The notes under the pieces: model-generated
The model's input: only the letters and a program-made list of their open reading frames with translations
What the model was told of the DNA's origin: nothing
Databases searched by the model: none
In this document: positions 14,690 to 37,082 of the stretch, piece after piece
Layout: every line of letters begins with the position of its first letter
Numbering within the stretch: position 1 is the stretch's first letter
Program-made: the position numbers and the translations under genes
Assembly (NCBI GenBank): GCA_013151965.1
Contig: JAADHF010000112.1
Coordinates: forward strand, 29,668-93,667
Reading direction: 5' to 3'
Source of the DNA: Spirochaetota bacterium
GTDB lineage: Bacteria; Spirochaetota; Spirochaetia; SZUA-6
DNA length: 64,000 nucleotides

Positions 14690-15523
14690 CTACTTTCCGT
14701 TTATAACTTTTAAAAGTCCGATTATCTTTTTCCGTTCCCCGTCCGAGAGCCCTCCGGGCATAATTGTAGGACCCGGGAAACAGGGAGATATAATTACCCC
14801 TTCAGCCAAAAACTTTTTAAATACGTTTTCGTACTCTGAAATACTGCACTCGGCTTTAAGGTAGATACCCTCCCTCTTCCAGATATTAAACGACTTAGGC
14901 AGCGAAAGGTCAACCCAGTCCGGTATTTTATAATGTTTTAGCCGGTACATCACATGAATAACACCGGCTAAAAGAACTGGAGAAACAGTATCCGAAGCAG
15001 GCAGTACATCCGCGGCCTTATCTTTAGAATCTTTAAAGCACAGTACCGCCGGAGAACCGCCGGCTGCAAAAGGGAAAAGGGGAACGAGCATTTTGTATTT
15101 CTTATAAAAAGTACTGTCCGTAAAGGGCCGCCAGTATGCGGCTTTATAACTTTTATCATCAGGGCCGCCGGCCGAAATCAGTACGGGATCCGTAATATCC
15201 TCTGCAGTTATACTCCCGCCGGATAACAAAGAAATATCCTTTAAAACTCTTTCAAAAGACCTTCTTATTCTAAATGTACTGTAAGCGGGAAATATTGTGA
15301 TAAGAAGTCTTATTAACCTCTTTTCATAAACCGAAGGAAAATCGTACAGCAGCCCTTTGGAAAGAGTATTCTTTAGTGTCCTTGAAAGTTTTTCCGCCCT
15401 GTGACCCAGGAGTGCATGCCCGTTATTCTGATAACAGTCTATATACCTTCTGCCTGTGCAGCCATACAATCTATAGTCCCTGGCTCTTTTGATTTCAGGG
15501 ATAAGTTTATTAAGGTCTATCAA
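14690..15523 (-). CDS. Short, apparently degenerate class-III aminotransferase-like (HemL-like) protein
   Basis: The N-terminus RARDYRLYGCTGRRYIDCYQNNGHALLGH parallels the HemL/AT-III motif DxDGxxYIDxxxGxxxxLGH. The C-terminus EGVIISPCFPG parallels HemL EGVYLAPSQFE. The protein is only 277 aa, and the region aligning to the PLP-lysine loop reads LVPLFPFAAGGSP, with no Lys. Confidence 0.4.
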   Translation of the reverse strand: MIDLNKLIPEIKRARDYRLYGCTGRRYIDCYQNNGHALLGHRAEKLSRTLKNTLSKGLLYDFPSVYEKRLIRLLITIFPAYSTFRIRRSFERVLKDISLLSGGSITAEDITDPVLISAGGPDDKSYKAAYWRPFTDSTFYKKYKMLVPLFPFAAGGSPAVLCFKDSKDKAADVLPASDTVSPVLLAGVIHVMYRLKHYKIPDWVDLSLPKSFNIWKREGIYLKAECSISEYENVFKKFLAEGVIISPCFPGPTIMPGGLSDGERKKIIGLLKVINGK

Positions 15524-16292
15524 CTTTAAAATCTCTCCGTATCATTGCATATGCACTGTGATTATGAATTGATTCCATATTCTCCGCTTCTACGGAAAAA
15601 AAACGGAGATAGGATAATTTCTCCAGTCTTGCCGCCACTTCCCGGACAACATCCTCCACAAATTTGGGGTTTTTATATGCCTGCTCTGTAATGTATTTCT
15701 CGTCTTCGCGCTTCAGCAGAGAGTAGAGAGGACAGGAAGCGGATTCTTCTGCAATCGTAATCAGGTCTTCTATCCATACAAACTTAATCATTTCCACTGT
15801 AATTGTCACATATCCCCTCTGATTATGGGCCGAAAAATCGGAAATTTCTTTGGAACACGGGCACAGTGTATGAACAGGAATTCGTACCGTTGTTGTTATG
15901 GAAAGATGCTTATCATAGGTAGCGGCAATAATACAGTCATAAGACATCAGGGATTCCCACAGAGTAACGGGGGCCTTTTTTGTTAAAAAGTACGGAAACG
16001 AAAATTCGAGATGCGATTTTTCGGCATTCAGTCTTTCCTTCATCCTTAGGAGTATTCTGTCCAGATTCTTATAGCTTACCTCTCCCTTAAACTCGTTAAG
16101 TACTTCTACAAGCCTGCTCATATGGGTACCCCGGTAATGATGGGGCAGGTTTACATAAAGGCTCACATCCGCAACTGTCGGCTGTCTCTGGTTCTTTCTA
16201 TCCTGTACGACAATAGGATACCTGATATTTTTTATTCCGACACAGTTAATAGGTATATTTCTTTTATCCCTTGAATTTTGAATATCAACCAT
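15510..16292 (-). CDS. folE2: GTP cyclohydrolase FolE2/MptA family
   Basis: CPCSKEIS...HNQR and the HNHSA motif are characteristic of COG1469. The likely start is MVDIQNSRDKR at 16292. The longer annotated ORF begins at 16325. Confidence 0.75.
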   Translation of the reverse strand: MVDIQNSRDKRNIPINCVGIKNIRYPIVVQDRKNQRQPTVADVSLYVNLPHHYRGTHMSRLVEVLNEFKGEVSYKNLDRILLRMKERLNAEKSHLEFSFPYFLTKKAPVTLWESLMSYDCIIAATYDKHLSITTTVRIPVHTLCPCSKEISDFSAHNQRGYVTITVEMIKFVWIEDLITIAEESASCPLYSLLKREDEKYITEQAYKNPKFVEDVVREVAARLEKLSYLRFFSVEAENMESIHNHSAYAMIRRDFKVDRP

Positions 16293-17739
16293 CACCAAGC
16301 TTTTCCCTGAGGATTGCCGCAGCAACTTGAGGATTTGCCCTGCCTTTTGTCAGCTTCATTATCCGGCCCATAAGAAACTTAATGGCATGATCCTTCCCCT
16401 TACGAAAATCGGCTACCGACTGCGGATTTTCTTTCATAACCTCCGCAACAAACCCTTCCAGTTTATCCCTGTCGGTAATCTGATTCAGTTTAAGTTTTTT
16501 AACAATAGTATCCGGAGACTCTCCGGATCCGGCCATCCTTGCAAAGACCTTCTTTGCAATCTTGCTGCTTATAATGCCGCTGTCAACAATTTCCATTAAT
16601 TTTGTTATATTTTCCGGGGGGAGAGAAAACTCCTCTATCGTAAGTCCTTCGGTATTCAAGTAGCCTCCGACCTCCGTTATTATCCAGCTTGCTATTTTTA
16701 CCGGTTCTCTATAACCCTTTGCGGCAGCCTCGAAGTAATCGCTTAAAGCCTTCGACGCAGCAAGAACAGAAGCCGCACCCTTCTTAAGTCCGTACTGCGA
16801 AACAAATCTCTTTCTCTTTGCAGCGGGCAGTTCGCCTACTCTTTTGCCCATTTCCGCTTCCAGATCTTTCGTTATCACTACAGGTTTTAAATCCGGCTCG
16901 GGAAAATATCTGTAATCCGCCTCTTCTTCTTTTTCCCGCTGTACTACGGTTTCCCCTGTCCTGTCATTATAACCCCTTGTTACTTTCCCTGTATCCGTAA
17001 GAGTCAGACGTTTCTCTCCCCATTCGGCAAGCTGCCTTTTAATCTCGTATTTAAGTGCATTCCGCATGGCCTTAAACGAATTCATATTCTTTACTTCGGA
17101 GATCGGGGTTTCGTACCTTTTATCATCTTCATAGATCCACAGGTTGATGTTTGCATCACACCTAAGGGACCCTTCCTCCATATTGCAGTCCGATATGCCC
17201 AGATACTTCATTATCTCGCGAATTCCCTGCACATACGAAACAGCCTCTAAAGGCGAGCGCATATCAGGTTCCGAAACAATCTCCAGAAGCGGAGTACCGC
17301 AGCGGTTAAAGTCCACATAGCTCAATCCGGAACCGTCTTCAAGGTGTAAATTTTTGCCTGCGTCCTCTTCCATATGCAGACGAATAATCCTTATGCTCTT
17401 TTTCCCGTCTCCGGTTTCTATATCGAGTTTCCCGCCTGTGCAGACAGGCATATCGTACTGTGAAATCTGATACCCCTTCGGCAGGTCGGGATACATGTAA
17501 TTCTTTCTGTCGAACCCGGTTACAGACGCCACTTTACAGTTTAAGGCCAGGCCGGCTAAAACAGCATCTTCTATCATTTTCTGGTTAACGACAGGCAGAG
17601 CTCCGGGCAGACCGAGACATACGGGACATACCCTGGTATTAGGTATTCCGCCGAACCTGTTTTCGCAGCTGCAGAAAGCCTTTGTTTTCGTTAACAGCTG
17701 GACATGAACTTCACAACCGATAACTACCTCATATTTCAC
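16285..17739 (-). CDS. gatB: Asp/Glu-tRNA amidotransferase subunit B
   Basis: The N-terminus YEVVIGCEVHVQL and the C-terminal YqeY-like tail identify GatB. Confidence 0.92.
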   Translation of the reverse strand: MKYEVVIGCEVHVQLLTKTKAFCSCENRFGGIPNTRVCPVCLGLPGALPVVNQKMIEDAVLAGLALNCKVASVTGFDRKNYMYPDLPKGYQISQYDMPVCTGGKLDIETGDGKKSIRIIRLHMEEDAGKNLHLEDGSGLSYVDFNRCGTPLLEIVSEPDMRSPLEAVSYVQGIREIMKYLGISDCNMEEGSLRCDANINLWIYEDDKRYETPISEVKNMNSFKAMRNALKYEIKRQLAEWGEKRLTLTDTGKVTRGYNDRTGETVVQREKEEEADYRYFPEPDLKPVVITKDLEAEMGKRVGELPAAKRKRFVSQYGLKKGAASVLAASKALSDYFEAAAKGYREPVKIASWIITEVGGYLNTEGLTIEEFSLPPENITKLMEIVDSGIISSKIAKKVFARMAGSGESPDTIVKKLKLNQITDRDKLEGFVAEVMKENPQSVADFRKGKDHAIKFLMGRIMKLTKGRANPQVAAAILREKLGDG

Positions 17740-22898: not shown

Positions 22899-23999
22899 TC
22901 AATAAACGGAAAACATCTTTAGAAGATATTTATCGCCTGTACCGTTTTTTACCCATTTTATCTGTTTTGTAACCACTTCGCCCGGTCTTCCCATCCCGAC
23001 AGACTCTCCTGCTACGGAAACCTTTAAAGACCCCGCATTAGATATCCACAGAATAACCGTATTTTTTATATCCAGGGAAAACTGCTCACCCTTGTGGAAA
23101 AAACGCTCATCCCGCTCTTTATTATCTTTTAAATACCTCAGCATACAGTAGCCGCGGAACCGAAAATCCACGGCAAAAGGTTCTATAGCGGATGATTCCA
23201 GAATAGTAACACTTGCAGCAGCAGAACTTACAGACTGTCCCGTAACGGCCGCTTGGGCGGGTTGTCCTTTTTCCGCTGAGGCAACCGGTTTAATAATCTT
23301 ATAAAGTCCGAGATTAACTCTCTGTGCATCGGTTGTTTTATCTATATCATTTAAAATAATTCTTATATCCGGTTTCGAATTAGAATCCAGGTCCAGATAA
23401 TTTTCCGAACCGACATGCAGATTAATCAATCCCTTACCGGTTTTAAGTGTTAACCCGTCGTCTATCCTGCTGATCTCTATACTGTAAACCTTTTTCCCTA
23501 ATTCATATTCTATTGTATCTCCCTTATTAAACCACCTGGTTATTGCCTCTCCCTGAAATACAAATTTACTGCCCTTTTTGCCTGCATTAAGAACCTCGGC
23601 TTTTTTAACAGTTTCCGCTTTTTCCCGGCCCGCTGAAAAATACTTATAGATGAAGTACCCTCCGGCTGCTGCGGAAACTGCAATTAAAACAATAACCGCC
23701 AGCCTGGAAATATTGCGCACTGCAGGTTTCACCTTAAGAAGTTCATCCATCGGAACCGGCTGTTCCTGGATCTTGATGTTTTTATAAAGATTAATGAGTT
23801 CACCGGGATCGAGCCCCAAATAATCGGCATAGTTTCTTAAAAAACCGATAATATAGGTTTCGCCCGGGAAAATACTAAAATCTTCATCTTCCAGAGCATG
23901 AAGATAGCGTTTGGATATATGCGTCTCCCGTGCAACCTGTTCGATATTGCATCCGTTTTTTTCGCGTTCCTGTTTCAGCAACCTGCCTATTGATTCCAT
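22899..23999 (-). CDS. RodZ-like XRE-family HTH membrane protein
   Basis: The N-terminal HTH is LLKQEREKNGCNIEQVARETHISKRYLHALE, followed by a single TM and an extracytoplasmic C-terminal domain. Confidence 0.65.
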   Translation of the reverse strand: MESIGRLLKQEREKNGCNIEQVARETHISKRYLHALEDEDFSIFPGETYIIGFLRNYADYLGLDPGELINLYKNIKIQEQPVPMDELLKVKPAVRNISRLAVIVLIAVSAAAGGYFIYKYFSAGREKAETVKKAEVLNAGKKGSKFVFQGEAITRWFNKGDTIEYELGKKVYSIEISRIDDGLTLKTGKGLINLHVGSENYLDLDSNSKPDIRIILNDIDKTTDAQRVNLGLYKIIKPVASAEKGQPAQAAVTGQSVSSAAASVTILESSAIEPFAVDFRFRGYCMLRYLKDNKERDERFFHKGEQFSLDIKNTVILWISNAGSLKVSVAGESVGMGRPGEVVTKQIKWVKNGTGDKYLLKMFSVY

Positions 24000-24005
24000 T
24001 TTAAC

Positions 24006-24731
24006 CTACTCTTGTGACTCAAACAAAAAATTATTAAAAACATTGGCATAAGCCGGTGCATCATAATCAAACCGGGAATCAGGAATATTCTGGTTTGCCT
24101 TTATATCCTGAAAATCAAAAACCAGCTCATCATACCCCATAGTCACCCCTTTGATACGCCTGATTAATCCGTTTTTCCCGATAGCCATTTCTATCTGCCG
24201 AAATCCCTCCGACACAGACCGGGATGTGAGCTTTAGTTTTACAACCAATTCTTTGGATTTTTCATCCAGAGGTACAGGATCAGGGCCGACGAGGTATGCT
24301 ATACTGTAATTCTTTCTCATGAATATCAGCCCCTGTTCGCTTGCCATCGAGGCAAGAGCCGATTCACTGTGTCTTTTTAATTTCTGAGTCATTATAACTT
24401 CGTATTTCGGTATATATATGGTAAGTTCTTTGCCGTTAGTTACAAGAACCTGATCCTTTGGTTCGGTGAAATCTATTCTTAAAAGATTGGGGATTTTATA
24501 GTAAAGTACACCTTTCATTACCGTATCACCCCGCGTAATAGTCACTTTTGCTTCATAATCCTTTACCTTGCCGTATGTTTTAGAAATTTTATCGAAATAT
24601 TTCTCCGCAGTAAGAATCTCTTCTCCGTAAGCGGACAAAACGCACAGCAACAACAGAGTGACGGTAAATGATAAGATTAATGTTTTTTTTTCCAAGGCCT
24701 TTCTTCTTAATCGAATGGTTTTACATAACAT
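24006..24731 (-). CDS. LolA-like outer-membrane lipoprotein carrier/sorting-fold protein
   Basis: It has a signal peptide, and ISKTYGKVKDYEAKVTI...LRIDFTEP matches the LolA/LppX unclosed beta-barrel pattern. Confidence 0.55.
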   Translation of the reverse strand: MLCKTIRLRRKALEKKTLILSFTVTLLLLCVLSAYGEEILTAEKYFDKISKTYGKVKDYEAKVTITRGDTVMKGVLYYKIPNLLRIDFTEPKDQVLVTNGKELTIYIPKYEVIMTQKLKRHSESALASMASEQGLIFMRKNYSIAYLVGPDPVPLDEKSKELVVKLKLTSRSVSEGFRQIEMAIGKNGLIRRIKGVTMGYDELVFDFQDIKANQNIPDSRFDYDAPAYANVFNNFLFESQE

Positions 24732-24736
24732 ACTAC

Positions 24737-27190
24737 TTAAACTGTATCCTTTGTCAAGTAACCCTTAAGGAGATAACGCAGAGAATCATCGGGGAGTTTA
24801 AGATATTCTCCGCAGTCAGGGCATGTAAAACGTTTATCCTTAATATAGCCGGATACACACTTTACACAGTATATTTTGCCGCAGATATTACACCTGCCCG
24901 CCGGAGCTTCGTCAGGCACATTACCGATAACCCTTAAAGAAGACTGCCGGGCTATATTCAACGGAACGTGCCAGCTCTGTCCGCATATCGAACATGAAAG
25001 CTCTTTCATATACCTTTTATGTATACTATCAAGCAGGGTGCGGGCCGAATGACTGGAGGAGTTCTTACCGAGAATATCCTCTGCAAGATGCAATGCCTTT
25101 TCCACATCGAGCCTCTTTAAATATAATCCCGCTAAACTGAGTTTTAAAATCTCATTATCCTTCTCTATCCTTAAACCTTCCAGGAAGGACATTTCAGCTC
25201 TCCTGTACTCCCCTTTTATCCCGGCAACCGTACCAATAAGATTATAGGCCGACGGAGAACCTGTAAGATCGAGAAGTTTAACGGCAAGCTCTTCGGCCCT
25301 GCTTATCATGTCGTTTTTTATGCAGGCGGAAGCGTAATTCTCTATATACGAAACATTATCCTTATCGATCCGCAGGGCCTTCTCATATTCGTAAACAGCG
25401 TTCTGATATTCATGCTTCCGCACAAACATATTACCCAGTTGATTATGCAGCCTCGCATTATCCGGGTTATCTTTTAAGTTTTTACGGAGCAGGGAGGCCG
25501 CATCACCGAGTTTACCCTTCTTAAAAAGAAACCCGGAATAGTTTATCAGTATATCGATCTCACCCGGAGCCGCTTCGAACGCTTTATGCAGGTATTCCTC
25601 TGCCATGTCAGGATTATCCTGTTTCAGGAAGTAGAGGCCGTAGAGGTTATTTATCCAGGGATCATCAGGATCGATTCTGTATGCTTCTTTCAGTTCATGA
25701 ACCGGATCCCTGTTAAGGAGGAATTTACTCTCTGCAAGTTTAAACCGGTACGGAGCAAAATCAGGTTCTATCTCCACTGCCTTTTCGTAGAGTTTTGCAG
25801 CCTGTTCCCGGTCTCCTCTCTTCGCATGAATCATGCCGGAAAGATAATATATCGAACTATCCCCGGTATTTTTCTTAATAAGCAGGGAAAAAATATCCTC
25901 TGCATTTTCTTCTCTGCCCTCGAAATAATGTATCTTTGCTTTTAAGCCCATTGTCGCATTATTTTTCGGATCTATACGCTGCATACGGGTAAGCACTGCA
26001 GAGAGCTCATCGTATTCCTCCCTTTTAAGAAGCAGAAGAGATGCATCTCTATACTTATCGAGCGCCTTACCGTTTTCCCGCAGCATCTCCATGCAGCGCG
26101 CCTCATTGACCATAAAGAGTGTATTTTCCGGTTCTATCTCCTCAGCCTGCTTATACGCCTTTAAGGCCTCTTCCATGTTCCCGAGTGCATACTGAGTATT
26201 GCCCAGAATATTCCGGAGCATTGCATCATCCTTAAACCTTTCGCAGATGCCCGCTATAAAATCTCTCGCTTCCGAATACCGCCTGAGCAGGTACAGAAGA
26301 TGAGCTTTTATTACCAGTGCATCGTCCATGTCCGGATCTATCTTAAGAGCACGCTCCGTTTCTTTAATTGCATCGCCGTAGAGTTTTAAACGCATTAAAA
26401 TCCGTGCATAAAGAACAAAATATTCGGGCACATCCCTTTTAGATGCAAGGACTTTTTTTACCTGCACAGCCGCAGGTTCAAGGTAGGAAAAGGTACTATC
26501 CGACATGGCAATAAACGTTTTTGCAAGATTAATCCGGAACTCCGGTTCCGCAGGGATATACTTTGCCCATCGCAAGTACATCTTTTCTACCTCAGCCGGC
26601 TTCGAATCTATCAAATAACTGTTAAGATAGAATGATGCCGGAGCCCTGTCGTTAAAATTCTGACCTGCAAATCCTATATATCCCTGATATACGGTTTCAT
26701 CTTCTATCTCCGCAACCCATTCATCATCGATATAAAACGAAAAACGAGAGCCGTCCGCTATCAGCCTTACATGATTCCCGCCGCGGGTGATAAGGGGATT
26801 TTCGGTCCATTCGATAAGACGGATGGGATTGCCGTTAAAGACAACATCGAGTCTGAACATCGCTCTATTGGAAAGCATAAAATAATAAAAATTCTCTTCA
26901 TTCATATATCTGAAAACAAAGCCTGCAGCGGAATGTCCGTTCTCCCGCCCAAAGGAAATATCCGCCTCTATAAAAAAATCTCTGTATTTATAATCTCCCT
27001 CGAGAGCCCAGGCAAACAGATTTTTCCGTTTTAATGTAAGCATAAATGAACGACGATATATTTCGGCTTTATACGAACCGGTTTCTTCGGCCGTGAACCT
27101 CTTCTGCTGGTACCACTTAAAACCTGTCTTCCATCTCTCGTAAACGACTCTGTCCGGATCTCTATGCTGCTTTCGAAACTCGAATATCAT
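24737..27190 (-). CDS. Multi-domain protein: N-terminal concanavalin/DUF1080-like jelly-roll, central TPR repeats, C-terminal double zinc ribbon
   Basis: The N-terminus GFVFRYMNEENFYYFML...NHVRLIADGSRFSFYIDDEWV resembles DUF1080. More than ten TPR-like repeats follow. The C-terminus has CSICG...CNICGKIYCVKC...CPDCG. Confidence 0.7.
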   Translation of the reverse strand: MIFEFRKQHRDPDRVVYERWKTGFKWYQQKRFTAEETGSYKAEIYRRSFMLTLKRKNLFAWALEGDYKYRDFFIEADISFGRENGHSAAGFVFRYMNEENFYYFMLSNRAMFRLDVVFNGNPIRLIEWTENPLITRGGNHVRLIADGSRFSFYIDDEWVAEIEDETVYQGYIGFAGQNFNDRAPASFYLNSYLIDSKPAEVEKMYLRWAKYIPAEPEFRINLAKTFIAMSDSTFSYLEPAAVQVKKVLASKRDVPEYFVLYARILMRLKLYGDAIKETERALKIDPDMDDALVIKAHLLYLLRRYSEARDFIAGICERFKDDAMLRNILGNTQYALGNMEEALKAYKQAEEIEPENTLFMVNEARCMEMLRENGKALDKYRDASLLLLKREEYDELSAVLTRMQRIDPKNNATMGLKAKIHYFEGREENAEDIFSLLIKKNTGDSSIYYLSGMIHAKRGDREQAAKLYEKAVEIEPDFAPYRFKLAESKFLLNRDPVHELKEAYRIDPDDPWINNLYGLYFLKQDNPDMAEEYLHKAFEAAPGEIDILINYSGFLFKKGKLGDAASLLRKNLKDNPDNARLHNQLGNMFVRKHEYQNAVYEYEKALRIDKDNVSYIENYASACIKNDMISRAEELAVKLLDLTGSPSAYNLIGTVAGIKGEYRRAEMSFLEGLRIEKDNEILKLSLAGLYLKRLDVEKALHLAEDILGKNSSSHSARTLLDSIHKRYMKELSCSICGQSWHVPLNIARQSSLRVIGNVPDEAPAGRCNICGKIYCVKCVSGYIKDKRFTCPDCGEYLKLPDDSLRYLLKGYLTKDTV

Positions 27191-27198
27191 GGCTCTTT

Positions 27199-29397
27199 CT
27201 ATTTCCGTCCGGTTATGATTTTATAACCCCCGGTAAGCCAGTTTTTTATTTCCCTTTTATAGTACCGTGAAAAGCGTCTTCCGCTTGCCCCTCCGGGAAT
27301 GACCGTATAGGCAGTATTATTACCAAAATCCGCAATAAGCCTGTATGACGGGCCGAAACTCATATCCATATTATTCGCCCTGTACATTGTACCCTGATGC
27401 ACTGTACTCCTGGATCCCCGAAGCGGATAGCGCACTGAATTAAAACCCAGGACCCTGAGTATAGTACTGCCGAAGAGAAGATGTCTCATAGTTATGCTGT
27501 TTTTTCTGCCCCAGGGTTCTTTTTTATTTCTTTTAACCCTTAAAAGGGCCTCTTTAACGGCCTGTTCCCAGTCGATGTCCTTAAAAATACCATCCTTTTT
27601 TAACCATTCTTCCTCCACCGCCTGATGGACGAGAACAAAGAAAAAAGTTTCTTCGTATATTTTTCTTCCGAGCTGTTCCGGAAAGATAATCCCGGTTCCT
27701 GTTATGAGCATAAGTTCTCTGTAAAAATCTTCGAAAAGAGATGCTTCGGTACTCTCAGGTACAAAACGGCAGTCCCATGCAAGAAGCTTATCACCGGCTT
27801 CATCACCCTTAAGATTGGGCTTTAGAAAATCAAGAACTCGTCTTACCTGATTGGAATAAACATCCATCTGAATCCTTCCCATCTTTTTATAATTTAAGGG
27901 TTTCGAACTTAAAATCATGTCTGCTATTCTATCCGCCCTGTCGGAGGAGAACGGAAGATTCTGGATTATTCCCTTCTGCTTATCATCCAGCCTGTTGTTT
28001 GCGGTAACAATAAAACCCTGTTCGGGATTGTACCGGTTCGGCAGTTTATCACGGTCCATATAACCCGCCCAGTCATAACCGGAATCCCATCCCGGTATGG
28101 GAAGGATGCCGCTTAAGCCCTTTCTCCGTTCCGGTATTATTCCGCTCATCTGAAAACCGATATTGCCTTTACTGTCAGCGAAAGTCCAGTTAAGAGTTGG
28201 TATATCTATCCCGGATGTAATACTCATTCCCTCTTTTACCGAATCCGATAAGGGGAGTTTAAGGAAATTATCAATAGTTTTGCCCAGAATACTTTCCGTA
28301 CCGCTCCACTTTCTGGCAAGATAAATACCTTCTTCGTAAGGATTTCCCTCTAAAGTGCCATGCTGATTTTCGTACACTGTAAATTCGATTTCCCTGCCTT
28401 TTTTTGTTTTAATAATCTCTTTTCGTTCGACGAAGGCATGATACTTACCGTTCCTTAAATACTTACCCTCTCTGCATTTTTCTATAAAAAAATCTTCCGT
28501 ATCAGCAGCTGTAAAAGTGATTCCCCATCCGATTTTCCCGTTAAAGCCGGCAGGAACTGCCGGTGCACCCGGAACCGTAATACCGGAAAACCATACTTCG
28601 GGAGTATCGATTATAATTTCGTACCAGATACTCGGCAGACGGGAAATCTCCAGGTGAGGATCGTTGCAGAATATCGGTTTGCCTGATTCGGTAAGGCTTC
28701 CGGAAACAGCCCAGTTGTTGCTTCCGCCGATTGAATTGTCGAAAAGCACATTTTCGGAAAGAGGGGTTTTTAGTTTTATTCCCTGAAACCATGAGTAATC
28801 GTATCCCGCAAAATAGGGATAAAAAAGCTTCCCCAGGTTATCAAAGTACTTTTTATCCTGGCAGATAACATCCGTCAGCACCTTCTCCGCTGATCCCTGA
28901 CTCTCCGCAAGGCCGACATACGCCATTATCCTCGATAATGCAAAAACATCTTTTAAATTCCATGGTTCGGGTTCCACTCCCGTAAGTTTAAATTCAAGAG
29001 GTCTGTAGCCGGTTTCCCTGAAATCCTCCACACCGGATATATATGCATTAAGCCATGTAAATGCCTTATCCGAAATATCATTAAATTCTTCTTCCGGCGA
29101 ACCTTTAAAATTAAGTGTTCTAAAATACTTATCCGCATTTATAAGATCTTCCCTGTCTCCGAAATACTCGGCAGCTCTTCCTTCCGCCAGAATCTTTACA
29201 AACCACATCTGAAACATCCTGTCGTACGCATGCATTACTCCCATGCCGTAGTATGCGTCTTCGAGATTCGAAGCCTTTATCACCGGTGTCCCGTAACCAT
29301 GCCTTGTTATGAGTATATCATTATGCGGATAAATACTGCCGCCTTCCTTTAAGGCTTTTGTTATTTTCATTTTACCGTTCTTAAATTTAAACCGCAT
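27199..29397 (-). CDS. Penicillin-acylase-family Ntn hydrolase (S45; penicillin/AHL/aculeacin acylase-like)
   Basis: The beta-subunit nucleophile motif GGSNNWAVSG...NDPHL is present. Length is 732 aa. Confidence 0.8.
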   Translation of the reverse strand: MRFKFKNGKMKITKALKEGGSIYPHNDILITRHGYGTPVIKASNLEDAYYGMGVMHAYDRMFQMWFVKILAEGRAAEYFGDREDLINADKYFRTLNFKGSPEEEFNDISDKAFTWLNAYISGVEDFRETGYRPLEFKLTGVEPEPWNLKDVFALSRIMAYVGLAESQGSAEKVLTDVICQDKKYFDNLGKLFYPYFAGYDYSWFQGIKLKTPLSENVLFDNSIGGSNNWAVSGSLTESGKPIFCNDPHLEISRLPSIWYEIIIDTPEVWFSGITVPGAPAVPAGFNGKIGWGITFTAADTEDFFIEKCREGKYLRNGKYHAFVERKEIIKTKKGREIEFTVYENQHGTLEGNPYEEGIYLARKWSGTESILGKTIDNFLKLPLSDSVKEGMSITSGIDIPTLNWTFADSKGNIGFQMSGIIPERRKGLSGILPIPGWDSGYDWAGYMDRDKLPNRYNPEQGFIVTANNRLDDKQKGIIQNLPFSSDRADRIADMILSSKPLNYKKMGRIQMDVYSNQVRRVLDFLKPNLKGDEAGDKLLAWDCRFVPESTEASLFEDFYRELMLITGTGIIFPEQLGRKIYEETFFFVLVHQAVEEEWLKKDGIFKDIDWEQAVKEALLRVKRNKKEPWGRKNSITMRHLLFGSTILRVLGFNSVRYPLRGSRSTVHQGTMYRANNMDMSFGPSYRLIADFGNNTAYTVIPGGASGRRFSRYYKREIKNWLTGGYKIITGRK

Positions 29398-29462: not shown

Positions 29463-30221
29463 CTACAGCATGCCGAGGTTAAGGTTGTTTCCGGGATTCT
29501 CGATTTCCTTTATCCGGTCACGCAGTTCCGCTGCACGTTCATAATTCTCATTCTTAACAGCTCTTTCCATATCCGTTTTAAGTTTTGCCAGGGGTGTCTC
29601 CCTGCTCTCCGCTACCTGCTTCAGCGTTGATTTAAGATAGTTAATCGATCTGATGCGTTCAAACTGAAAAGCAGGAGTATCAATTTCCGGCATCGCTTCG
29701 ATATCATTTATAGCTGATTTAAGAATCTCTCTGGCCGTAGTTTTCATCTCATGATGCAGGAGAATCATGGCCCGTGAAATGGCATTCATCCGCAGAATAT
29801 AAGGCCTGTACTGGAGTATCTCTTTTTTATCCTCTTCATTCTCCGCATAATCTTCGACAATATCGCATACCTTCAGATTATGTTCGGTATCTCTTACCGT
29901 CCTTTTAAAATCACCGATCTGAAACAGAACGAGATAACGGAAGTAGTACAGGATGCCTTCGTTCTGGATCTGCAGAAAATCTTCATGACTTATTGTATAA
30001 CCGGGATTGCCGTCTATCCGGGAGAAGAATTCATCCAGTACCGATTCCCTGTTAAAAGGTCTCTTACCGTCCGGCCTGCCCTCCAGTTCATACTGCTCTA
30101 TTCCGAGCGGCTGCCTGACCTGGAGCACATCCCTTCCGTCATCCGCCTGTATAATTCGAATTTGATCTCCCGGCTCATATTCCCATTTTTTTAATAAACC
30201 AGTAATATCCTGACTCATCAC
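29463..30221 (-). CDS. Hypothetical protein with a C-terminal UVR (UvrB/UvrC-type) motif
   Basis: The C-terminus ENYERAAELRDRIKEI matches the UVR domain. The N-terminal 200 aa are unassigned. Confidence 0.5.
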   Translation of the reverse strand: MMSQDITGLLKKWEYEPGDQIRIIQADDGRDVLQVRQPLGIEQYELEGRPDGKRPFNRESVLDEFFSRIDGNPGYTISHEDFLQIQNEGILYYFRYLVLFQIGDFKRTVRDTEHNLKVCDIVEDYAENEEDKKEILQYRPYILRMNAISRAMILLHHEMKTTAREILKSAINDIEAMPEIDTPAFQFERIRSINYLKSTLKQVAESRETPLAKLKTDMERAVKNENYERAAELRDRIKEIENPGNNLNLGML

Positions 30222-31448: not shown

Positions 31449-32165
31449 ATGGATAATCTTAAAAGACACAACACTCCGGTGCATGTAATCTCACTCGGAG
31501 GATCACTCATAGCGCCGGATACTGTGGACACGGATTTCCTTAAGAAATTCAAAAGAGCAGTTACGGAATACTTAAGCGAAGACATAATGAGAAAACTGAT
31601 TCTTGTATGCGGAGGCGGAGCAACGGCAAGAAAATACCAGCAGTCCTACACAAGCATAATTCCGGATGCAGCGCCGGAAGAACTGGACTGGATAGGAATA
31701 AGGGCAACCAGACTTAATGCCGAACTTGTTAAAAATATCTTCAGGGAATACACTGCCGACATGGTTGTTACCGATCCTACCGCAGTTTCCGTTTTTGCAG
31801 GCCGTATTCTTGTTGCATCAGGCTGGAAGCCCGGTTTTTCCACGGATTATGATTCCGTTATACTTGCAGAAAAGTTCTTTGCCGGTACTATCATCAATCT
31901 CTCGAATATAGAAAAGGTCTATTCCGAAGATCCTAAGAAAAACCCGGATGCCGTACCGATGGATAAAATAACCTGGCCCGAGTTTCAAAAACTTGTGGGA
32001 AATGTATGGAAACCCGGCATCAATGTACCCTTCGACCCTGTAGCCTCGAAAAGAGCCGCACAAAAGGGTCTTCGTGTTGTGATTGCATCCGGCAGTAATA
32101 TTCCCAACCTTCTCAGCATACTAAGGGGGGATAAGTTTACCGGCACCAGTATCGTCCCGGCTTAA
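31449..32165 (+). CDS. pyrH: UMP kinase, archaeal type (amino-acid-kinase family)
   Basis: LVCGGGATARKY, IGIRATRLNA, KVYSEDPKKNPDA and the C-terminal GDKFTGTSIVP follow archaeal-type PyrH rather than the bacterial GGGNxxRG type. Confidence 0.75.
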   Translation: MDNLKRHNTPVHVISLGGSLIAPDTVDTDFLKKFKRAVTEYLSEDIMRKLILVCGGGATARKYQQSYTSIIPDAAPEELDWIGIRATRLNAELVKNIFREYTADMVVTDPTAVSVFAGRILVASGWKPGFSTDYDSVILAEKFFAGTIINLSNIEKVYSEDPKKNPDAVPMDKITWPEFQKLVGNVWKPGINVPFDPVASKRAAQKGLRVVIASGSNIPNLLSILRGDKFTGTSIVPA

Positions 32166-32191
32166 GGTTTATCGGATGATCTGGATACTCC

Positions 32192-33154
32192 TCATCTCAC
32201 ATTATATCCGCCGGTGAAATGCCATAATGGTTTTGCCATATCACGGGGGAAGGGATTGTGCTTTTTAAAATCAGGCATCCATTCGTCACTTTCGGAGAAT
32301 TCCTGCATAAACCCGTCATCTATCTCTAATTTAAAAAGATAGTCCGTTACGGCACTGTATTCGTCAGCGGAAAGCATTCCGGGTATTCCGGTTTCCGATT
32401 CTTTTGTTCCTCTGTGCGTATCCACAGGAATAAACTGAAACATCAAAGAAAGGACAGCCCTTTTATACCACCTGTCCTTAAACAGTTTTAAAATTTCATA
32501 GGTTGATTCAAGGGCACCCGGAATAACGAGATGCCGCAATATTACCCCGCGGACCATCCTTTTATCATACATTTTAAGGGACTTCATATCTATCATACTG
32601 CCGGCCGCTTCCGCGGCAATTTCGGGATACAAAGCCGCTTTAAATAAATTCAGAGAAGCTTTCACGGACAAACTTTTTAAATCCGTTAAAAAAATATCCA
32701 CGGTATTTTTTAACAATATCAGCGATTCTTCTTTCTCGAAACCCGATGTATTCCAGACGATGGGTATTCCGAGCCCCTTTTTACGCGCCCTTTCCACGGC
32801 ATCGACAATATGAGGAATAAAATGTGTCCCGGTAACAAGATTGATATTTTCGGCATTCATCTTTTCCAGTCCAAGCATAATATCCGAAAGTTCTCCGGCA
32901 GTGACTACGGATCCTATCCGGCTGCCGGAAAGCTGATAATTCTGACAGAAAGTACATTGCAGAGTACACCCGGTAAAAAATATTGTGCCCGAGCCGTTTT
33001 TCCCTGTAATAACCGGTTCTTCGCCATAATGGATACCGGCCCATGCAATTCTTACATCTGCGGATTCTCCGCAGAAACCGGTTCTGCCTTTTAACCTGTT
33101 AACACAACAATTTCTCGGACATAATGTGCAGTGTTCATAACCTTTATGATTCAT
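32192..33154 (-). CDS. Radical SAM protein (COG1313/PflX-like)
   Basis: CTLQCTFCQN is the CxxxCxxC motif. There is an additional N-terminal Cys cluster CTLCPRNCCVN. Confidence 0.75.
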   Translation of the reverse strand: MNHKGYEHCTLCPRNCCVNRLKGRTGFCGESADVRIAWAGIHYGEEPVITGKNGSGTIFFTGCTLQCTFCQNYQLSGSRIGSVVTAGELSDIMLGLEKMNAENINLVTGTHFIPHIVDAVERARKKGLGIPIVWNTSGFEKEESLILLKNTVDIFLTDLKSLSVKASLNLFKAALYPEIAAEAAGSMIDMKSLKMYDKRMVRGVILRHLVIPGALESTYEILKLFKDRWYKRAVLSLMFQFIPVDTHRGTKESETGIPGMLSADEYSAVTDYLFKLEIDDGFMQEFSESDEWMPDFKKHNPFPRDMAKPLWHFTGGYNVR

Positions 33155-33282
33155 TGTATGAATATATCTTTACAACAGAACTGATTTCTTGACAAGATAC
33201 GGAAAGATAACTATTCTTTACCACTGTCACAGGTACTTAAAGGTTCCGTTTTTAAGCACATGAGGAAAGTGCTGCAAATTAT

Positions 33283-33367
33283 GCCGGCGTGATGAAATTG
33301 GTAGACGTGCCAGACTCAAAATCTGGTGGGCCTTGCGCCCGTGTCGGTTCGACTCCGACCGCCGGCA
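33283..33367 (+). tRNA. tRNA-Leu (anticodon CAA)
   Basis: The acceptor stem is GCCGGCG / CGCCGGC. The anticodon stem-loop CCAGA-CTCAAAA-TCTGG gives anticodon CAA. There is a long variable arm, a T-arm GGTTCGACTCC and discriminator A. No CCA is encoded. Confidence 0.85.
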
Positions 33368-33376
33368 TATATCGTA

Positions 33377-34054
33377 ATGAAAATATTAATAGTTGAGGAT
33401 GACAGCAGAATTGCCACGTTTATTTCCAGAGGATTGACGCAGGCCGGTTACACGGTAGATCATCTGGAAAGTGCGGAAGAGTGCCTCCGGATTACCAAAA
33501 ACATACCGTACGACCTGATAATAATCGATATAATGCTTCCCGGAATGGACGGCATAACATTGATAGAGACTCTAAGAAGCAGGGGTTCTATCATGCCGAT
33601 ACTTATTTTAAGTGCCAGACAGTCCGTAGATGACAAGGTAGAAGGGTTAAGGCACGGCGGCGATGATTACCTTACCAAACCTTTTTCATTTACAGAACTT
33701 CTTGCAAGAATCCAGGCCCTTATAAGAAGATCCAGCCGCATATCGGGCAGTTCCGCAAAACTAACAGCAGGCGATCTCTCCCTCGACCTTTACAGTCATG
33801 AAGTAAAACGGTCAGGGCAGAAAATCGATCTAAGACCGAGAGAATTTGCCCTGCTTGAATACCTCATGCGGAACGCCGGTAATGTTCTGACAAAAACCAT
33901 GATAATGGAAAAGGTCTGGAATTACGATTTCGATCCGCAGACAAATATCGTGGATGTGCTTATATCCAGGTTGAGAAATAAAATCGATAAGGATTATGAA
34001 AATAAAATGATAAAAACCATCCGCGGTGTGGGCTATGTTCTTCAGGTCACTTAA
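33377..34054 (+). CDS. OmpR/PhoB-family response regulator
   Basis: MKILIVEDD, DIMLPGMDG and KP are present, with a winged-helix C-terminus (LRPREFALLEYL...IKTIRGVGY). The start is 9 nt after the tRNA 3' end. The upstream ATG at 33326 is rejected because it lies inside the tRNA. Confidence 0.88.
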   Translation: MKILIVEDDSRIATFISRGLTQAGYTVDHLESAEECLRITKNIPYDLIIIDIMLPGMDGITLIETLRSRGSIMPILILSARQSVDDKVEGLRHGGDDYLTKPFSFTELLARIQALIRRSSRISGSSAKLTAGDLSLDLYSHEVKRSGQKIDLRPREFALLEYLMRNAGNVLTKTMIMEKVWNYDFDPQTNIVDVLISRLRNKIDKDYENKMIKTIRGVGYVLQVT

Positions 34055-35423
34055 ATTCCGTATTGCCCTGTTTTTTCTCATCCTTTTTATTTCAGGTGCC
34101 GCAATACTGTACAGTACTTCCTATCTTTTTTTTACAAGATCGCTAAAAAATGATTTCAATAATGAAATGAGATTCCTCCTTTTGAATTTCTGGGCACAGT
34201 ACCAGTCCGGCGGTCTCGAATTTTTATCACAGGAACTTGTCCGGAACAAATATGAAGGAAAAGCCTTTCTTATCCGCATAGCAGACAGGACAAATACGAC
34301 ACTTTTCCTTCTCTACCCGAAATTATGGGATAATTTTAATTTCGATTCCCTGGACAGGATAAAACCGGCCGATAACGGGAACGGTATTCTTCTTAAAACC
34401 CCGGAATATTTATGGAATATAGAGGTAAAAACGGTACTTCTGCCTGACAGCAATATCCTTCAGGTCGGGATCAGTAACGAGGACACAATAAAAATGCTTA
34501 AACATTTTCGGGGTATCTTTCTGCTGGCTCTGCTCCCGGTTCTCCTTATAAGTTTTGCAGGGTTTTTCTTATTTGCAGCAGGTGCTTTAAAACCCCTCGA
34601 TAAAGTAATCGATACTGCGGATAACATAATCAGAACAGGAAAAATAAAGACAAGGATTCCATATAAAGACAGCGGAGACGAGATCTCAAAACTTATCAAT
34701 ACCTTTAACACAATGTTAAACAGCATAGACTCTTCCATGGAAAGGATGAAAAACACCCTTGATAATGTTGCCCATGACCTTAGAACTCCGATGACACGCC
34801 TGCAGGGAACAGCAGAAATAGCCATCGGAACTGCAAAAAACAGCGAAATGTACAGAGAAGCCCTGCAGGAATGCGTGGATGATACCAGGACCATAATGAC
34901 GCTTGTAAATACGCTTATGGATATTTCCGAAGCGGAAACAGGTATCATGAAATTAAGAAAATTATCCGCCGATATTTCCCTGCTGGTTAAGGATGTTGCA
35001 GAATTCTATTACTACCCTGCAGATGAAAAGGGAATAACCATTACAACGGATATACCTAAAAATATCTCTGCGGAAATCGACATAAACAGGATAAGACAGG
35101 TCCTGGCCAATATTCTCGATAACGCCGTTAAATATACTCCCGAAAACGGTGAAATAAACGTTTCCCTCTACAGGGAAACAATTAACGGAACACCTCATAT
35201 TTGTATAAGAATCTCTGATAACGGACCGGGTATTCCCGAACAGGATATTGAACACATATGGAACAGGCTTTACAGGGCTGATAATACCAGGAACATAAAA
35301 GGCCTGGGATTGGGCTTAAGCCTTGCAAAAGCAATTGTAGAGGCTCATAACGGCAGCATAAAAGCGGAAAACAGAAAGAATCACGGAGCCGTATTTACCA
35401 TATCTTTGCCCGTCCGTCAATAA
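34026..35423 (+). CDS. Sensor histidine kinase (2 TM, HAMP, HisKA, HATPase_c)
   Basis: The H-box is HDLRTPMTRL. The N, G1 and G2 boxes are present (NAVKYT, DNGPGI, GLGLGLS). Confidence 0.85.
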   Translation: MWAMFFRSLKFRIALFFLILFISGAAILYSTSYLFFTRSLKNDFNNEMRFLLLNFWAQYQSGGLEFLSQELVRNKYEGKAFLIRIADRTNTTLFLLYPKLWDNFNFDSLDRIKPADNGNGILLKTPEYLWNIEVKTVLLPDSNILQVGISNEDTIKMLKHFRGIFLLALLPVLLISFAGFFLFAAGALKPLDKVIDTADNIIRTGKIKTRIPYKDSGDEISKLINTFNTMLNSIDSSMERMKNTLDNVAHDLRTPMTRLQGTAEIAIGTAKNSEMYREALQECVDDTRTIMTLVNTLMDISEAETGIMKLRKLSADISLLVKDVAEFYYYPADEKGITITTDIPKNISAEIDINRIRQVLANILDNAVKYTPENGEINVSLYRETINGTPHICIRISDNGPGIPEQDIEHIWNRLYRADNTRNIKGLGLGLSLAKAIVEAHNGSIKAENRKNHGAVFTISLPVRQ

Positions 35424-35449
35424 TCCGAATACGGGTTAATTTGCCAACA

Positions 35450-35463
35450 TTACAAAATTGTAA
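35450..35463. promoter_or_regulatory. Inverted repeat TTACAA-aa-TTGTAA in the htrA promoter region, a candidate operator for the upstream OmpR-type regulator
   Basis: 6-bp perfect arms read from the sequence, about 75 nt upstream of the htrA ATG. Any regulatory role is inferred. Confidence 0.2.
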
Positions 35464-35537
35464 CATTTCCGTAATCCTTCTGTAATAATTCATCATTATA
35501 CTATCTTTAAGTAAACAATAGATCCAAGGAGGATACT

Positions 35538-37082
35538 ATGAAGATCAAAAAATTTTTAGGTTCCAAAGGATTTCTGGCAGTAAACATTTTTTTAATTACC
35601 GCTGTCGCCGTAATCCTGGTTGTTTCCCTTTCGGGATTCGGAGGCAGAGGAGAACAGCAGACACCCCAGCCTGTGAACAATCAACAGCCTTCAGGTACTG
35701 CAGTTCAGCCTCAGCAGACCGGAAATACTTCCGGAAGCGGGGGAATACAGGCACTGAAAGAAATGCAGTTCTCATTCAGGACTGTTGCCAGCAGGGTTAT
35801 TCCTACCGTTGTGGAAGTAGATGTTGTTGATATTATCAAACAGCCCGTTCCGCAGTTAACAAATCCATTTGAGTTCTTCTTCGGGCCCCAGGGAAATAAT
35901 CAGGAAAAGAAACAGTACAGGGAGTATAAACAGTACGGACTCGGTTCCGGTGTTATAGTAAAGAGGTCCGGAAATAAAGTTTATGTACTTACCAACAACC
36001 ATGTCGTGGGAAAAGCGGAAGAGATAAGTATAAAACTGCACGATCAGAGAATTTTTAAAGCCAAGCTTGTAGGCAAGGATGAGAAAAAAGACCTTGCCCT
36101 TGTTGTTTTCAAAACAAAACAGTCCGTTCCCATAGCGGAGCTCGGCGACTCGAACACTCTGCAGGTCGGCGACTGGGTACTGGCAGTGGGCAATCCTCTC
36201 GGCTTTGAATCCACAGTAACAGCCGGTATTGTAAGTGCAATCGGAAGACATCCCATAAGGGGCAGCGGAATTGCTACATTTACAAATTATATTCAGACGG
36301 ATGCTGCAATAAACCGCGGAAATTCCGGGGGTGCTTTAGTTAACTTAGACGGACAGGTCGTCGGAATAAACTCATGGATAGCTTCTCCCTCCGGAGGAAG
36401 TATCGGTCTCGGTTTTGCAATTCCGATTAATACGGCAAAAAAAGCCATAAATGAATTTATAACAAAGGGTAAAATCGAATACGGCTGGCTCGGTGTTTCC
36501 ATGGGTGATGTTTCTCCCCAGATTGCAGCCGGATTCGGCTTAAAGAACCATTCAGGTGCCTTTATATACGGCGTTTTTAAAGGGTCTCCCGCAGGCAAAA
36601 GCGGCATCCTGCCCGGAGACATTATTACAAAGATTAACAACCGGACAATTAAAGATTCTACCGAACTCTTAATGACAATAGGTGATCTTCCTCCGAACCA
36701 CACAATTACGATCGGAATCTACAGATACGGCACTACTACGGAAGTTAAAGTTAAACTCGCAACACGTGAAGAGGAAAAAAAGATTGCCAAAAAGGCAGAT
36801 AAACTCTGGCCCGGATTATATGCGGTGCCTATTACTCCGGACATCAGAAAACAGCTTAAACTATCCTCCCGTGACGGTGATGTTATTTTAGGAAATGTGA
36901 TACAGGGCAGTCCGGCTGCAATAGCTGGTTTTAGACCCGGAGATATAGTAAAGAAAATAAACGGCACGGATATAAAAACACTTACGGACTTTTATAAAGC
37001 GTTAAACAATTTAAAAGAGAGAAAACTGCTCTTTAATCTGGTTCGCGAAAATAATTCGATCATTATAGGTCTGGTAAGATAA
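35538..37082 (+). CDS. htrA: HtrA/DegP-family periplasmic serine protease with two PDZ domains
   Basis: The catalytic triad context is NNHVV, DLALV and GNSGGAL. An N-terminal TM/signal anchor and two PDZ domains are present. The RBS is AAGGAGGA. Confidence 0.88.
   Translation: MKIKKFLGSKGFLAVNIFLITAVAVILVVSLSGFGGRGEQQTPQPVNNQQPSGTAVQPQQTGNTSGSGGIQALKEMQFSFRTVASRVIPTVVEVDVVDIIKQPVPQLTNPFEFFFGPQGNNQEKKQYREYKQYGLGSGVIVKRSGNKVYVLTNNHVVGKAEEISIKLHDQRIFKAKLVGKDEKKDLALVVFKTKQSVPIAELGDSNTLQVGDWVLAVGNPLGFESTVTAGIVSAIGRHPIRGSGIATFTNYIQTDAAINRGNSGGALVNLDGQVVGINSWIASPSGGSIGLGFAIPINTAKKAINEFITKGKIEYGWLGVSMGDVSPQIAAGFGLKNHSGAFIYGVFKGSPAGKSGILPGDIITKINNRTIKDSTELLMTIGDLPPNHTITIGIYRYGTTTEVKVKLATREEEKKIAKKADKLWPGLYAVPITPDIRKQLKLSSRDGDVILGNVIQGSPAAIAGFRPGDIVKKINGTDIKTLTDFYKALNNLKERKLLFNLVRENNSIIIGLVR

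Follow-up and report, generated by a model that had tools for sequence, protein, structure and literature searches.

The closest described counterpart of the gene arrangement studied here is found in Borrelia burgdorferi, where bb0346 encodes the essential lipoprotein carrier LolA, which acts in a pathway without LolB (PMC11326224), bb0345 encodes a helix-turn-helix (HTH) protein (PMC2811001), and bb0344 and bb0347 encode UvrD and a fibronectin-binding protein, respectively (PMC5333916). Here we analyse a stretch of 64,000 nt (hereafter the window; positions 29,668 to 93,667 of contig JAADHF010000112.1, assembly GCA_013151965.1) from a Spirochaetota bacterium of the lineage SZUA-6, in which genes for a penicillin-acylase-family hydrolase, a lectin-like/tetratricopeptide repeat (TPR)/zinc-ribbon protein (hereafter the TPR protein), LolA and the morphogenetic protein RodZ succeed one another on the minus strand. 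The original prediction, made from the sequence alone, was that these four genes form an envelope, lipoprotein or acyl-signal processing and morphology module. We consider it likely that the region is instead part of an ancient collinear spirochaete gene string, whose order would read (2-hydroxyacid dehydrogenase - UVR-motif protein) - [TPR protein] - lolA - rodZ - [rimO] - uvrD - [gatCAB]. In the window, its members (with the evidence for each in brackets, ORF standing for open reading frame) are:

31257-30307, minus strand: 2-hydroxyacid dehydrogenase (Pfam 2-Hacid_dh_C, 1e-60)
30221-29463, minus strand: UVR-motif protein, 252 aa (Pfam UVR, 1.7e-12, C-terminal motif)
29397-27199, minus strand: penicillin-acylase-family N-terminal nucleophile (Ntn) hydrolase, 732 aa (ORF and Pfam)
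27190-24737, minus strand: lectin-like/TPR/zinc-ribbon protein, 817 aa (ORF, profile searches and model)
24731-24006, minus strand: lolA, 241 aa (ORF and Pfam LolA)
23999-22899, minus strand: rodZ, 366 aa (ORF, HTH_25 and RodZ_C)
22884-21562, minus strand: rimO, ribosomal protein S12 methylthiotransferase (TIGR01125, 430.8 bits, cut-off 357)
21565-19484, minus strand: uvrD/pcrA-type helicase (orthologues have UvrD-helicase and UvrD_C Pfam domains)
19491-19183, minus strand: gatC (GatC Pfam domain in the collinear loci L001 and L003)
19183-17729, minus strand: gatA (Amidase Pfam domain in the same two loci)
17739-16285, minus strand: gatB (GatB Pfam domain in the same two loci)

The conservation of this order was assessed with an alignment of RodZ, run against a single genome for each species, which yielded 80 species-REPRESENTATIVE loci anchored on rodZ (from Spirochaetales, Treponemataceae, Rectinemataceae, Breznakiellaceae and others), onto which the window proteins were placed by tblastn; all fractions given below are loci with the feature over testable loci, and their denominators therefore vary. 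In every testable locus (77/77) lolA lies directly upstream of rodZ, at a median gap of 5 nt (usually 0-6 nt, and no more than 20 nt in 69 of 80). Downstream of rodZ, rimO follows directly in 64/68 loci (median gap 7 nt, all within 100 nt) and uvrD is next in line in 48/60, while gatA was found within 10 kb in 2/43. On the other side, the gene for the TPR protein immediately precedes lolA in 50/62 loci, in Spirochaetales as well as in Treponema-related families, with a median gap of about 41 nt (up to 100 nt in 45/55), and the acylase gene is present in a single locus out of 52. Loci without the TPR gene have the UVR-motif gene immediately next to lolA, and those without the acylase gene have it next to the TPR gene. 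In a second sample, consisting of 8 distinct metagenomic contigs that bear orthologues of the TPR protein, the TPR-LolA-RodZ order is the same in all eight, and the acylase is encoded by no more than two of them, the closest ones (60% and 48% identity). Thus, the claim of no random juxtaposition holds for the TPR gene, lolA and rodZ, and a synteny of all four genes across related genomes fails at the acylase gene.

The antiquity of the order is suggested by the Borrelia lineage. A Borreliella spielmanii locus (L093), retrieved with the Borrelia LolA sequence, carries an opposite-strand NFACT gene, lolA, a gene for a 400-aa HTH_25 protein and uvrD, and continues with a GatC-sized ORF, gatA and gatB, after which come the genes for L13 and S9. 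The window RodZ and this HTH protein can be aligned over their full lengths (23% identity, E 6e-16), and the latter passes HTH_25 and HTH_19 in Pfam, though not RodZ_C. The window thereby shares with B. burgdorferi bb0346-bb0345-bb0344-gatCAB the same order and strand of lolA, a gene for a RodZ-like HTH and transmembrane protein, uvrD and gatC/A/B; the Borreliella string differs in having no TPR gene, no acylase gene and no rimO, and lolA heads the run after the opposite-strand NFACT gene. This match implies that the lolA-rodZ-uvrD-gatCAB order is ancient and exists without these three genes. Further downstream, the Borreliella locus has, after gatB, a gene for a 269-aa protein without Pfam match, followed by rplM-rpsI. 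A small protein of the TP_0679 family (PF27420) recurs downstream of uvrD in loci L005 and L007 and downstream of folE2 in L008, preceded by a 270-285-aa protein without Pfam match, and rplM-rpsI-recX follow in L005 and L007. The downstream gene order shared by L005, L007 and Borreliella indicates that the conserved string extends beyond what the window shows of it.

As had been predicted, the four genes are tightly packed and co-directional, and their intergenic gaps of 8, 5 and 6 nt (acylase/TPR gene, TPR gene/lolA and lolA/rodZ) make co-expression likely in the window genome. The packing does not end there: rimO starts 14 nt after rodZ, and the pairs rimO/uvrD, uvrD/gatC, gatC/gatA and gatA/gatB overlap by 4, 8, 1 and 11 nt, every junction from the acylase gene through gatB being either overlapping or at most 14 nt wide. 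Since rimO, uvrD and gatCAB are packed equally tightly, packing and co-direction cannot single out an envelope module; conserved order is no better a guide by itself, being the same or stronger between rodZ and rimO or uvrD, whose functions lie outside the envelope. The cluster had also been said to head a same-strand run of 15 kb, which was not borne out, as two genes of the same strand (those for the 2-hydroxyacid dehydrogenase and the UVR-motif protein, separated by 85 nt, with 65 nt between the latter and the acylase gene) precede it; the run spans 31257 to 14690 and ends with folE2 (GCHY-1) and one further ORF after gatB. Promoter- and terminator-like consensus sites across the region were as numerous as expected from shuffled sequence, and no terminator-like site fell within any of the gaps. 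A promoter-like site matching at 10 of 12 positions (24757-24730) ends on the lolA start codon and was taken as chance. Rfam and tRNA scans returned nothing in the cluster region.

The distribution of the acylase gene is that of a recent arrival. It is limited to one clade, which includes the window, a short contig 90-93% identical to it (L012), L001/L010, L003/L013 and L090 (59% acylase identity, with the four genes in the order seen in the window), and in a neighbour-joining tree of RodZ the loci that carry it form a single clade, while the loci without the TPR gene fall in at least 5 separate places. More distant acylase homologues outside the clade (44% and 39% identity) are found in unrelated contexts, among mevalonate-pathway genes or among ClpS/ClpA and toxin-antitoxin genes. 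No gene separates the acylase gene from the UVR-motif gene in the window and L090; in L001 (7077-7679) and L003 (5255-7685) an opposite-strand methyltransferase gene is placed between the two, accompanied in L003 by the gene for an unannotated 619-aa protein, and we regard this junction as an insertion hotspot. In many spirochaete loci the UVR-motif gene, whose 252-aa product has no recognisable feature besides this motif, is likewise kept between the 2-hydroxyacid dehydrogenase gene and the string.

The assignment of the acylase to the penicillin-acylase family of Ntn hydrolases proved correct (Pfam PF01804, Penicil_amidase, 2e-150, 503.4 bits against a cut-off of 21.3, residues 29-726). Its closest matches in the PDB are the D-succinylase 7eby and the glutaryl-7-aminocephalosporanic acid (7-ACA) acylase 4hst (1e-39 to 1e-40), followed by penicillin G acylases, and residue 1 of the solved acylase beta chains falls on query residue 226, the Ser of GG|SNNW, which G225 precedes. 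The Ntn nucleophile site Gly225|Ser226, a predicted autoprocessing site, is thus intact, and because this Gly-Ser pair is kept the enzyme is probably active. Its description as a secreted protein, on the other hand, did not survive: the translation of the longest ORF begins with MRFKFKNGKMKITKALKEGG, 13 codons downstream of an in-frame stop, the N-terminus lacks a hydrophobic segment (maximum Kyte-Doolittle hydropathy, KD15, 0.44), as do those of the L001 and L003 orthologues, and a signal-peptide-like N-terminus was found in 0/120 of the nearest homologues, which measure 710-770 aa. The acylase is presumably cytoplasmic, which would be unusual for its family, and the subfamily to which it belongs (signal-less, 705-817 aa) occurs in Spirochaetota, Leptospiraceae, Thermodesulfobacteriota, Wallbacteria and others, a side observation of possible enzymological interest. 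An identity as N-acyl homoserine lactone (AHL) acylase was rejected, given that the PvdQ equivalog NF051460 reached 22.6 bits against a cut-off of 950 and that the PDB matches listed are cephalosporin, succinyl or penicillin acylases throughout. With the enzyme confined to one clade (1/52 loci) and devoid of a signal peptide, the acyl-signal component of the original prediction is unsupported.

The LolA-like carrier was confirmed by Pfam (LolA PF03548, 55.4 bits, cut-off 23.6), by a strongly hydrophobic N-terminus (KD 2.84) that marks a signal peptide, and by its best PDB match by far, the Borrelia burgdorferi LolA BB0346 (7tpm, 7e-21), to which we consider it orthologous by sequence. The score against the NCBIfam equivalog TIGR00547 (63.8 bits) lies below its cut-off of 112, a model that is built mainly on proteobacterial LolA and from which Borrelia LolA is likewise divergent. 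The alignment with 7tpm keeps a Leu-Asp and an Arg-Arg pair, matching the four positions at which the LolA homologues of spirochaetes are reported to be best conserved (PMC11326224). A lipoprotein form of the carrier, with Cys30 in the motif LLLC as the lipidated residue, was considered and rejected, the Cys being unconserved and the signal peptides of orthologues ending in AxA/AQ-E-type sites. Among the ORFs submitted to the Pfam scan (from about 12 to 40 kb of the window) there was no LolCDE-type ABC transporter, though no search was aimed at LolCDE. The RodZ-like HTH membrane protein was likewise confirmed: a cytoplasmic HTH domain (aa 1-90; HTH_25, 3e-24, 85 bits) precedes a single transmembrane segment (about aa 98-120, KD19 2.17) and a periplasmic RodZ_C domain (26.0 bits, cut-off 23.9), and the PDB matches are the RodZ N-domains 3fym (2e-8) and 2wus_R (3.5e-5). 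Its residues Y49 and F53, invariant among spirochaete orthologues, align with Y53 and Y57 of Thermotoga maritima RodZ, which van den Ent et al. are said to have described in 2010 as contacting MreB.

All four proteins belong to known families, that of the TPR protein being uncharacterised, and an exact look-up of its 817-aa sequence found no record. It is composed of three parts:

26546-27190, minus strand (aa 1-215): N-terminal concanavalin A-like beta-sandwich, CBM66/DUF1080-like (profile, model and intermediate sequences)
25010-26545, minus strand (aa 216-727): TPR superhelix of about 15 helical hairpins (Pfam TPR families and model)
24737-25009, minus strand (aa 728-817): putative 8-Cys zinc-ribbon/RING-like domain with a terminal helix (conserved Cys and model)

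The N-terminal domain had been called a DUF1080/concanavalin-like jelly-roll, and this stands as far as fold and transitive homology are concerned, although a direct Pfam match is missing (none at E up to 10, PF06439 included). PF06439 (3-keto-disaccharide hydrolase) is the former DUF1080. The AlphaFold model is an all-beta sandwich (predicted local distance difference test, pLDDT, 91.3), and a profile of 18 orthologues matched the CBM66 module of Bacillus subtilis levanase in the PDB (3.4e-5). The domain profile, run against 1.84 billion representative proteins, recovered 5692 relatives, of which the strongest non-orthologous ones are secreted and bear 3-13 tandem copies, and all 7 of the non-orthologous relatives that were scanned (E 1e-52 to 1e-89) pass PF06439. 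Relatives such as P0241, P0242, P0268 and P0293 carry up to 13 tandem domains; these very large proteins reach 3465 aa, and many of them have a signal peptide. Within the family, strong conservation is seen at the polar and aromatic residues W61, Y102, R113, D115, N119, W128, W158, D164, Q177 and N178. The claim of more than ten TPR repeats was upheld: Pfam recognises TPR families alone in the protein (residues 250-720), and 31 helices within residues 198-727, equivalent to about 15 hairpins, form a long OGT-like superhelix. At the C-terminus, four CxxC motifs (C733, C736, C767, C770, C775, C778, C790 and C793) lie between residues 733 and 793; the eight Cys are invariant in the C-terminal alignment A5 and at least 90% conserved in alignment A1, which includes one fragment without the domain. 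The model places beta-hairpins there, the Pfam matches to DZR, Zn_ribbon, IBR and RING are all weak and below cut-off, and the profile of this domain matched only composition-driven C2H2 arrays and, weakly, RING in the PDB, with no rubredoxin or LapB match listed.

The family to which the TPR protein belongs comprises 58 full-length homologues (32-90% identity) and at least 65 representative clusters with both the N-domain and the four CxxC motifs (790-966 aa); it is apparently restricted to spirochaetes, all members with a named source being from Spirochaetota. A signal-peptide-like N-terminus was found in 0/65 clusters and in 0/58 homologues, as against 38/81 of the other proteins matched by the N-domain profile (many of them short fragments), and because the family lacks such an N-terminus the protein is, by straightforward inference from sequence, cytoplasmic.

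Taken together, these observations point to a string whose members would serve unrelated jobs around an invariant lolA-rodZ core, and which is most likely, judging from its overlaps and short gaps, one long, translationally coupled transcription unit. By homology, LolA would be exported by means of its signal peptide and carry lipoproteins across the periplasm, in a LolB-less manner as for its Borrelia orthologue, and RodZ would be the bitopic membrane anchor of MreB, while RimO, UvrD and GatCAB would fulfil unrelated housekeeping functions. Two additions seem to have been made at the 5' end: an old one, the signal-less and presumably cytoplasmic scaffold formed by the TPR protein, which is found beside lolA in about 80% of lineages and would have been lost from this position several times, and a recent one, the signal-less acylase, which apparently entered by a single insertion in the small clade to which the window belongs. 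Several points weigh against this interpretation. The TPR-lolA-rodZ triad is kept despite rearrangements on both flanks (L005, L009 and L006), more persistence than neutral collinearity would call for and perhaps the sign of a functional link; the acylase gene, 8 nt from the TPR gene in the window clade, is probably co-expressed with it, and the enzyme may have been functionally recruited there. Furthermore, the 80 loci represent the top scores among more than 546 matches, a cut that left distant spirochaetes (Leptospira and Brachyspira) unsampled, the RodZ tree is a crude one, and the only grounds for a cytoplasmic TPR protein are the missing N-terminal hydrophobic segments and the Cys-rich predicted zinc domain.

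The alternative that survives best, to which we nevertheless assign a low probability, is that the TPR gene, lolA and rodZ form a functional unit of three, in which the cytoplasmic TPR protein would be a spirochaete-specific scaffold working with RodZ and/or the Lol pathway and the acylase a later passenger. The TPR superhelix would dock on, for instance, the RodZ HTH domain, MreB or LolCDE, and the beta-sandwich would bind a sugar-containing envelope precursor, so that cell elongation would be coupled to envelope or lipoprotein supply. This reading gains from the frequency of the TPR gene directly upstream of lolA in several families, from the stability of the triad while both flanks change, and from the coherence of a TPR family that is signal-less throughout and known from spirochaetes only where sources are named; moreover, a long OGT-like superhelix is typical of protein-binding scaffolds, and the conserved polar and aromatic residues of the N-domain are what a putative ligand site would be expected to have. 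It loses, however, from the absence of the TPR gene at the locus in 12 of 62 species, on at least 5 branches, and in Borreliella, in all of which lolA-rodZ is intact, and from a TPR-lolA junction that is looser than those between lolA and rodZ or between rodZ and rimO. In addition, rimO is as tightly tied to rodZ without a plausible shared function, which makes adjacency weak evidence in this region. We also hold it doubtful that the TPR protein is a spirochaete-specific cytoplasmic adaptor whose beta-sandwich senses an envelope precursor containing sugar and which physically connects this precursor with the RodZ/MreB elongasome or with lipoprotein export through LolCDE-LolA. The four-gene module, in which a secreted acylase would deacylate AHLs, lipopeptides or lipoproteins in the periplasm, is very improbable: in its favour are the short gaps, an order that recurs in four genomes of the same clade (L012, L001, L003/L013 and L090) and the putatively active nucleophile site, but the acylase is absent in 51 of 52 other species loci (where the UVR-motif gene abuts the TPR gene), its homologues outside the clade are found in other surroundings, neither it nor any of its 120 nearest homologues bears a signal peptide, so that it could not reach periplasmic lipoproteins or external AHLs by the Sec route, its PvdQ score is far below cut-off, and the tight packing extends to rimO, uvrD and gatCAB.

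Of use to specialists is the observation that lolA and rodZ were never separated in the sampled spirochaetes, which is relevant to work on the LolB-less Lol pathway and the elongasome in Borrelia or Treponema, polar effects of mutations in lolA or bb0345 being one example. If the adaptor function were true, the lolA-rodZ pairing would mean that lipoprotein trafficking is really coupled to the machinery of cell shape in spirochaetes without LolB; as matters stand, the unstudied TPR family of about 800 aa beside lolA-rodZ is an only mildly novel lead for spirochaete envelope biology. A four-gene module, had it been true, would have suggested a new envelope and acyl-signal module, whereas the evidence shows an ordinary, very old string with a lineage-specific acylase.

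The surroundings of the string were also inspected. The longest folE2 ORF (type I GTP cyclohydrolase, GCHY-1; 15510-16325, minus strand) shares 41 nt with the end of gatB, and its TTG start may be over-extended; the gatB-folE2 order is also found in L001 and L003. Beyond it, on the plus strand (12035-14368), lies a 777-aa ORF without Pfam family at E up to 0.01, in which a glucosamine-6-phosphate-isomerase-like GPDGHIGFN motif and an LmbE/PIG-L-like HHDD motif were noticed by eye; the related locus L008 has a 492-aa Glucosamine_iso and PIG-L protein downstream. Upstream of the 2-hydroxyacid dehydrogenase gene, a block at 31449-37082 comprises genes for an AA-kinase (plus strand) and a radical-SAM protein (minus strand), tRNA-Leu(CAA) at 33282-33368, and then genes for an OmpR-type response regulator, a histidine kinase and an HtrA-like protease (plus strand). 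This block is collinear with L001, L003 and L090, and gene order is hence common to the window clade over more than 25 kb.

Classical glutaryl-7-ACA and penicillin-type acylases are periplasmic or secreted; the window acylase resembles glutaryl-7-ACA acylase, D-succinylase and penicillin G acylase in its full-length family match, in the alignment of both alpha and beta regions and in the Gly-Ser at the start of the beta chain, and is unlike them in lacking a signal peptide, as a member of the signal-less subfamily described above. The N-terminal domain of the TPR protein differs from CBM66 of Bacillus subtilis levanase SacC and from PF06439 in having no direct Pfam match and in heading a signal-less TPR/zinc-ribbon protein, while many of its relatives are secreted and composed of 3-13 tandem copies.

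As regards the overall architecture of the TPR protein, a parallel exists in LapB/YciM of Escherichia coli, a cytoplasmic regulator of envelope biogenesis in which TPRs are combined with a zinc-binding domain at the C-terminus. The window protein is similar to it in that a TPR array is followed by a Cys-rich domain, in its predicted cytoplasmic location and in being encoded among envelope genes, and is set apart by the lack of an N-terminal membrane anchor, by the additional lectin-like domain, by about 15 instead of about 9 TPRs and by a predicted 8-Cys double ribbon in place of the 4-Cys rubredoxin-like domain. Membership in the LapB/YciM family was therefore rejected (no anchor; NCBIfam LapB 25 bits against a cut-off of 363), the resemblance being a loose one.

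Finally, the window RodZ shares HTH_25, a single transmembrane segment and RodZ_C with the RodZ of the T. maritima RodZ-MreB complex (2wus) and with Staphylococcus aureus YmfM (3fym), with identities of about 25-30% that refer to the HTH domain only, and differs in its long and variable periplasmic linker. It also differs in genomic placement, spirochaete rodZ being paired with lolA in every testable locus, a pairing not known from E. coli, where rodZ neighbours ispG and lolA neighbours ftsK.

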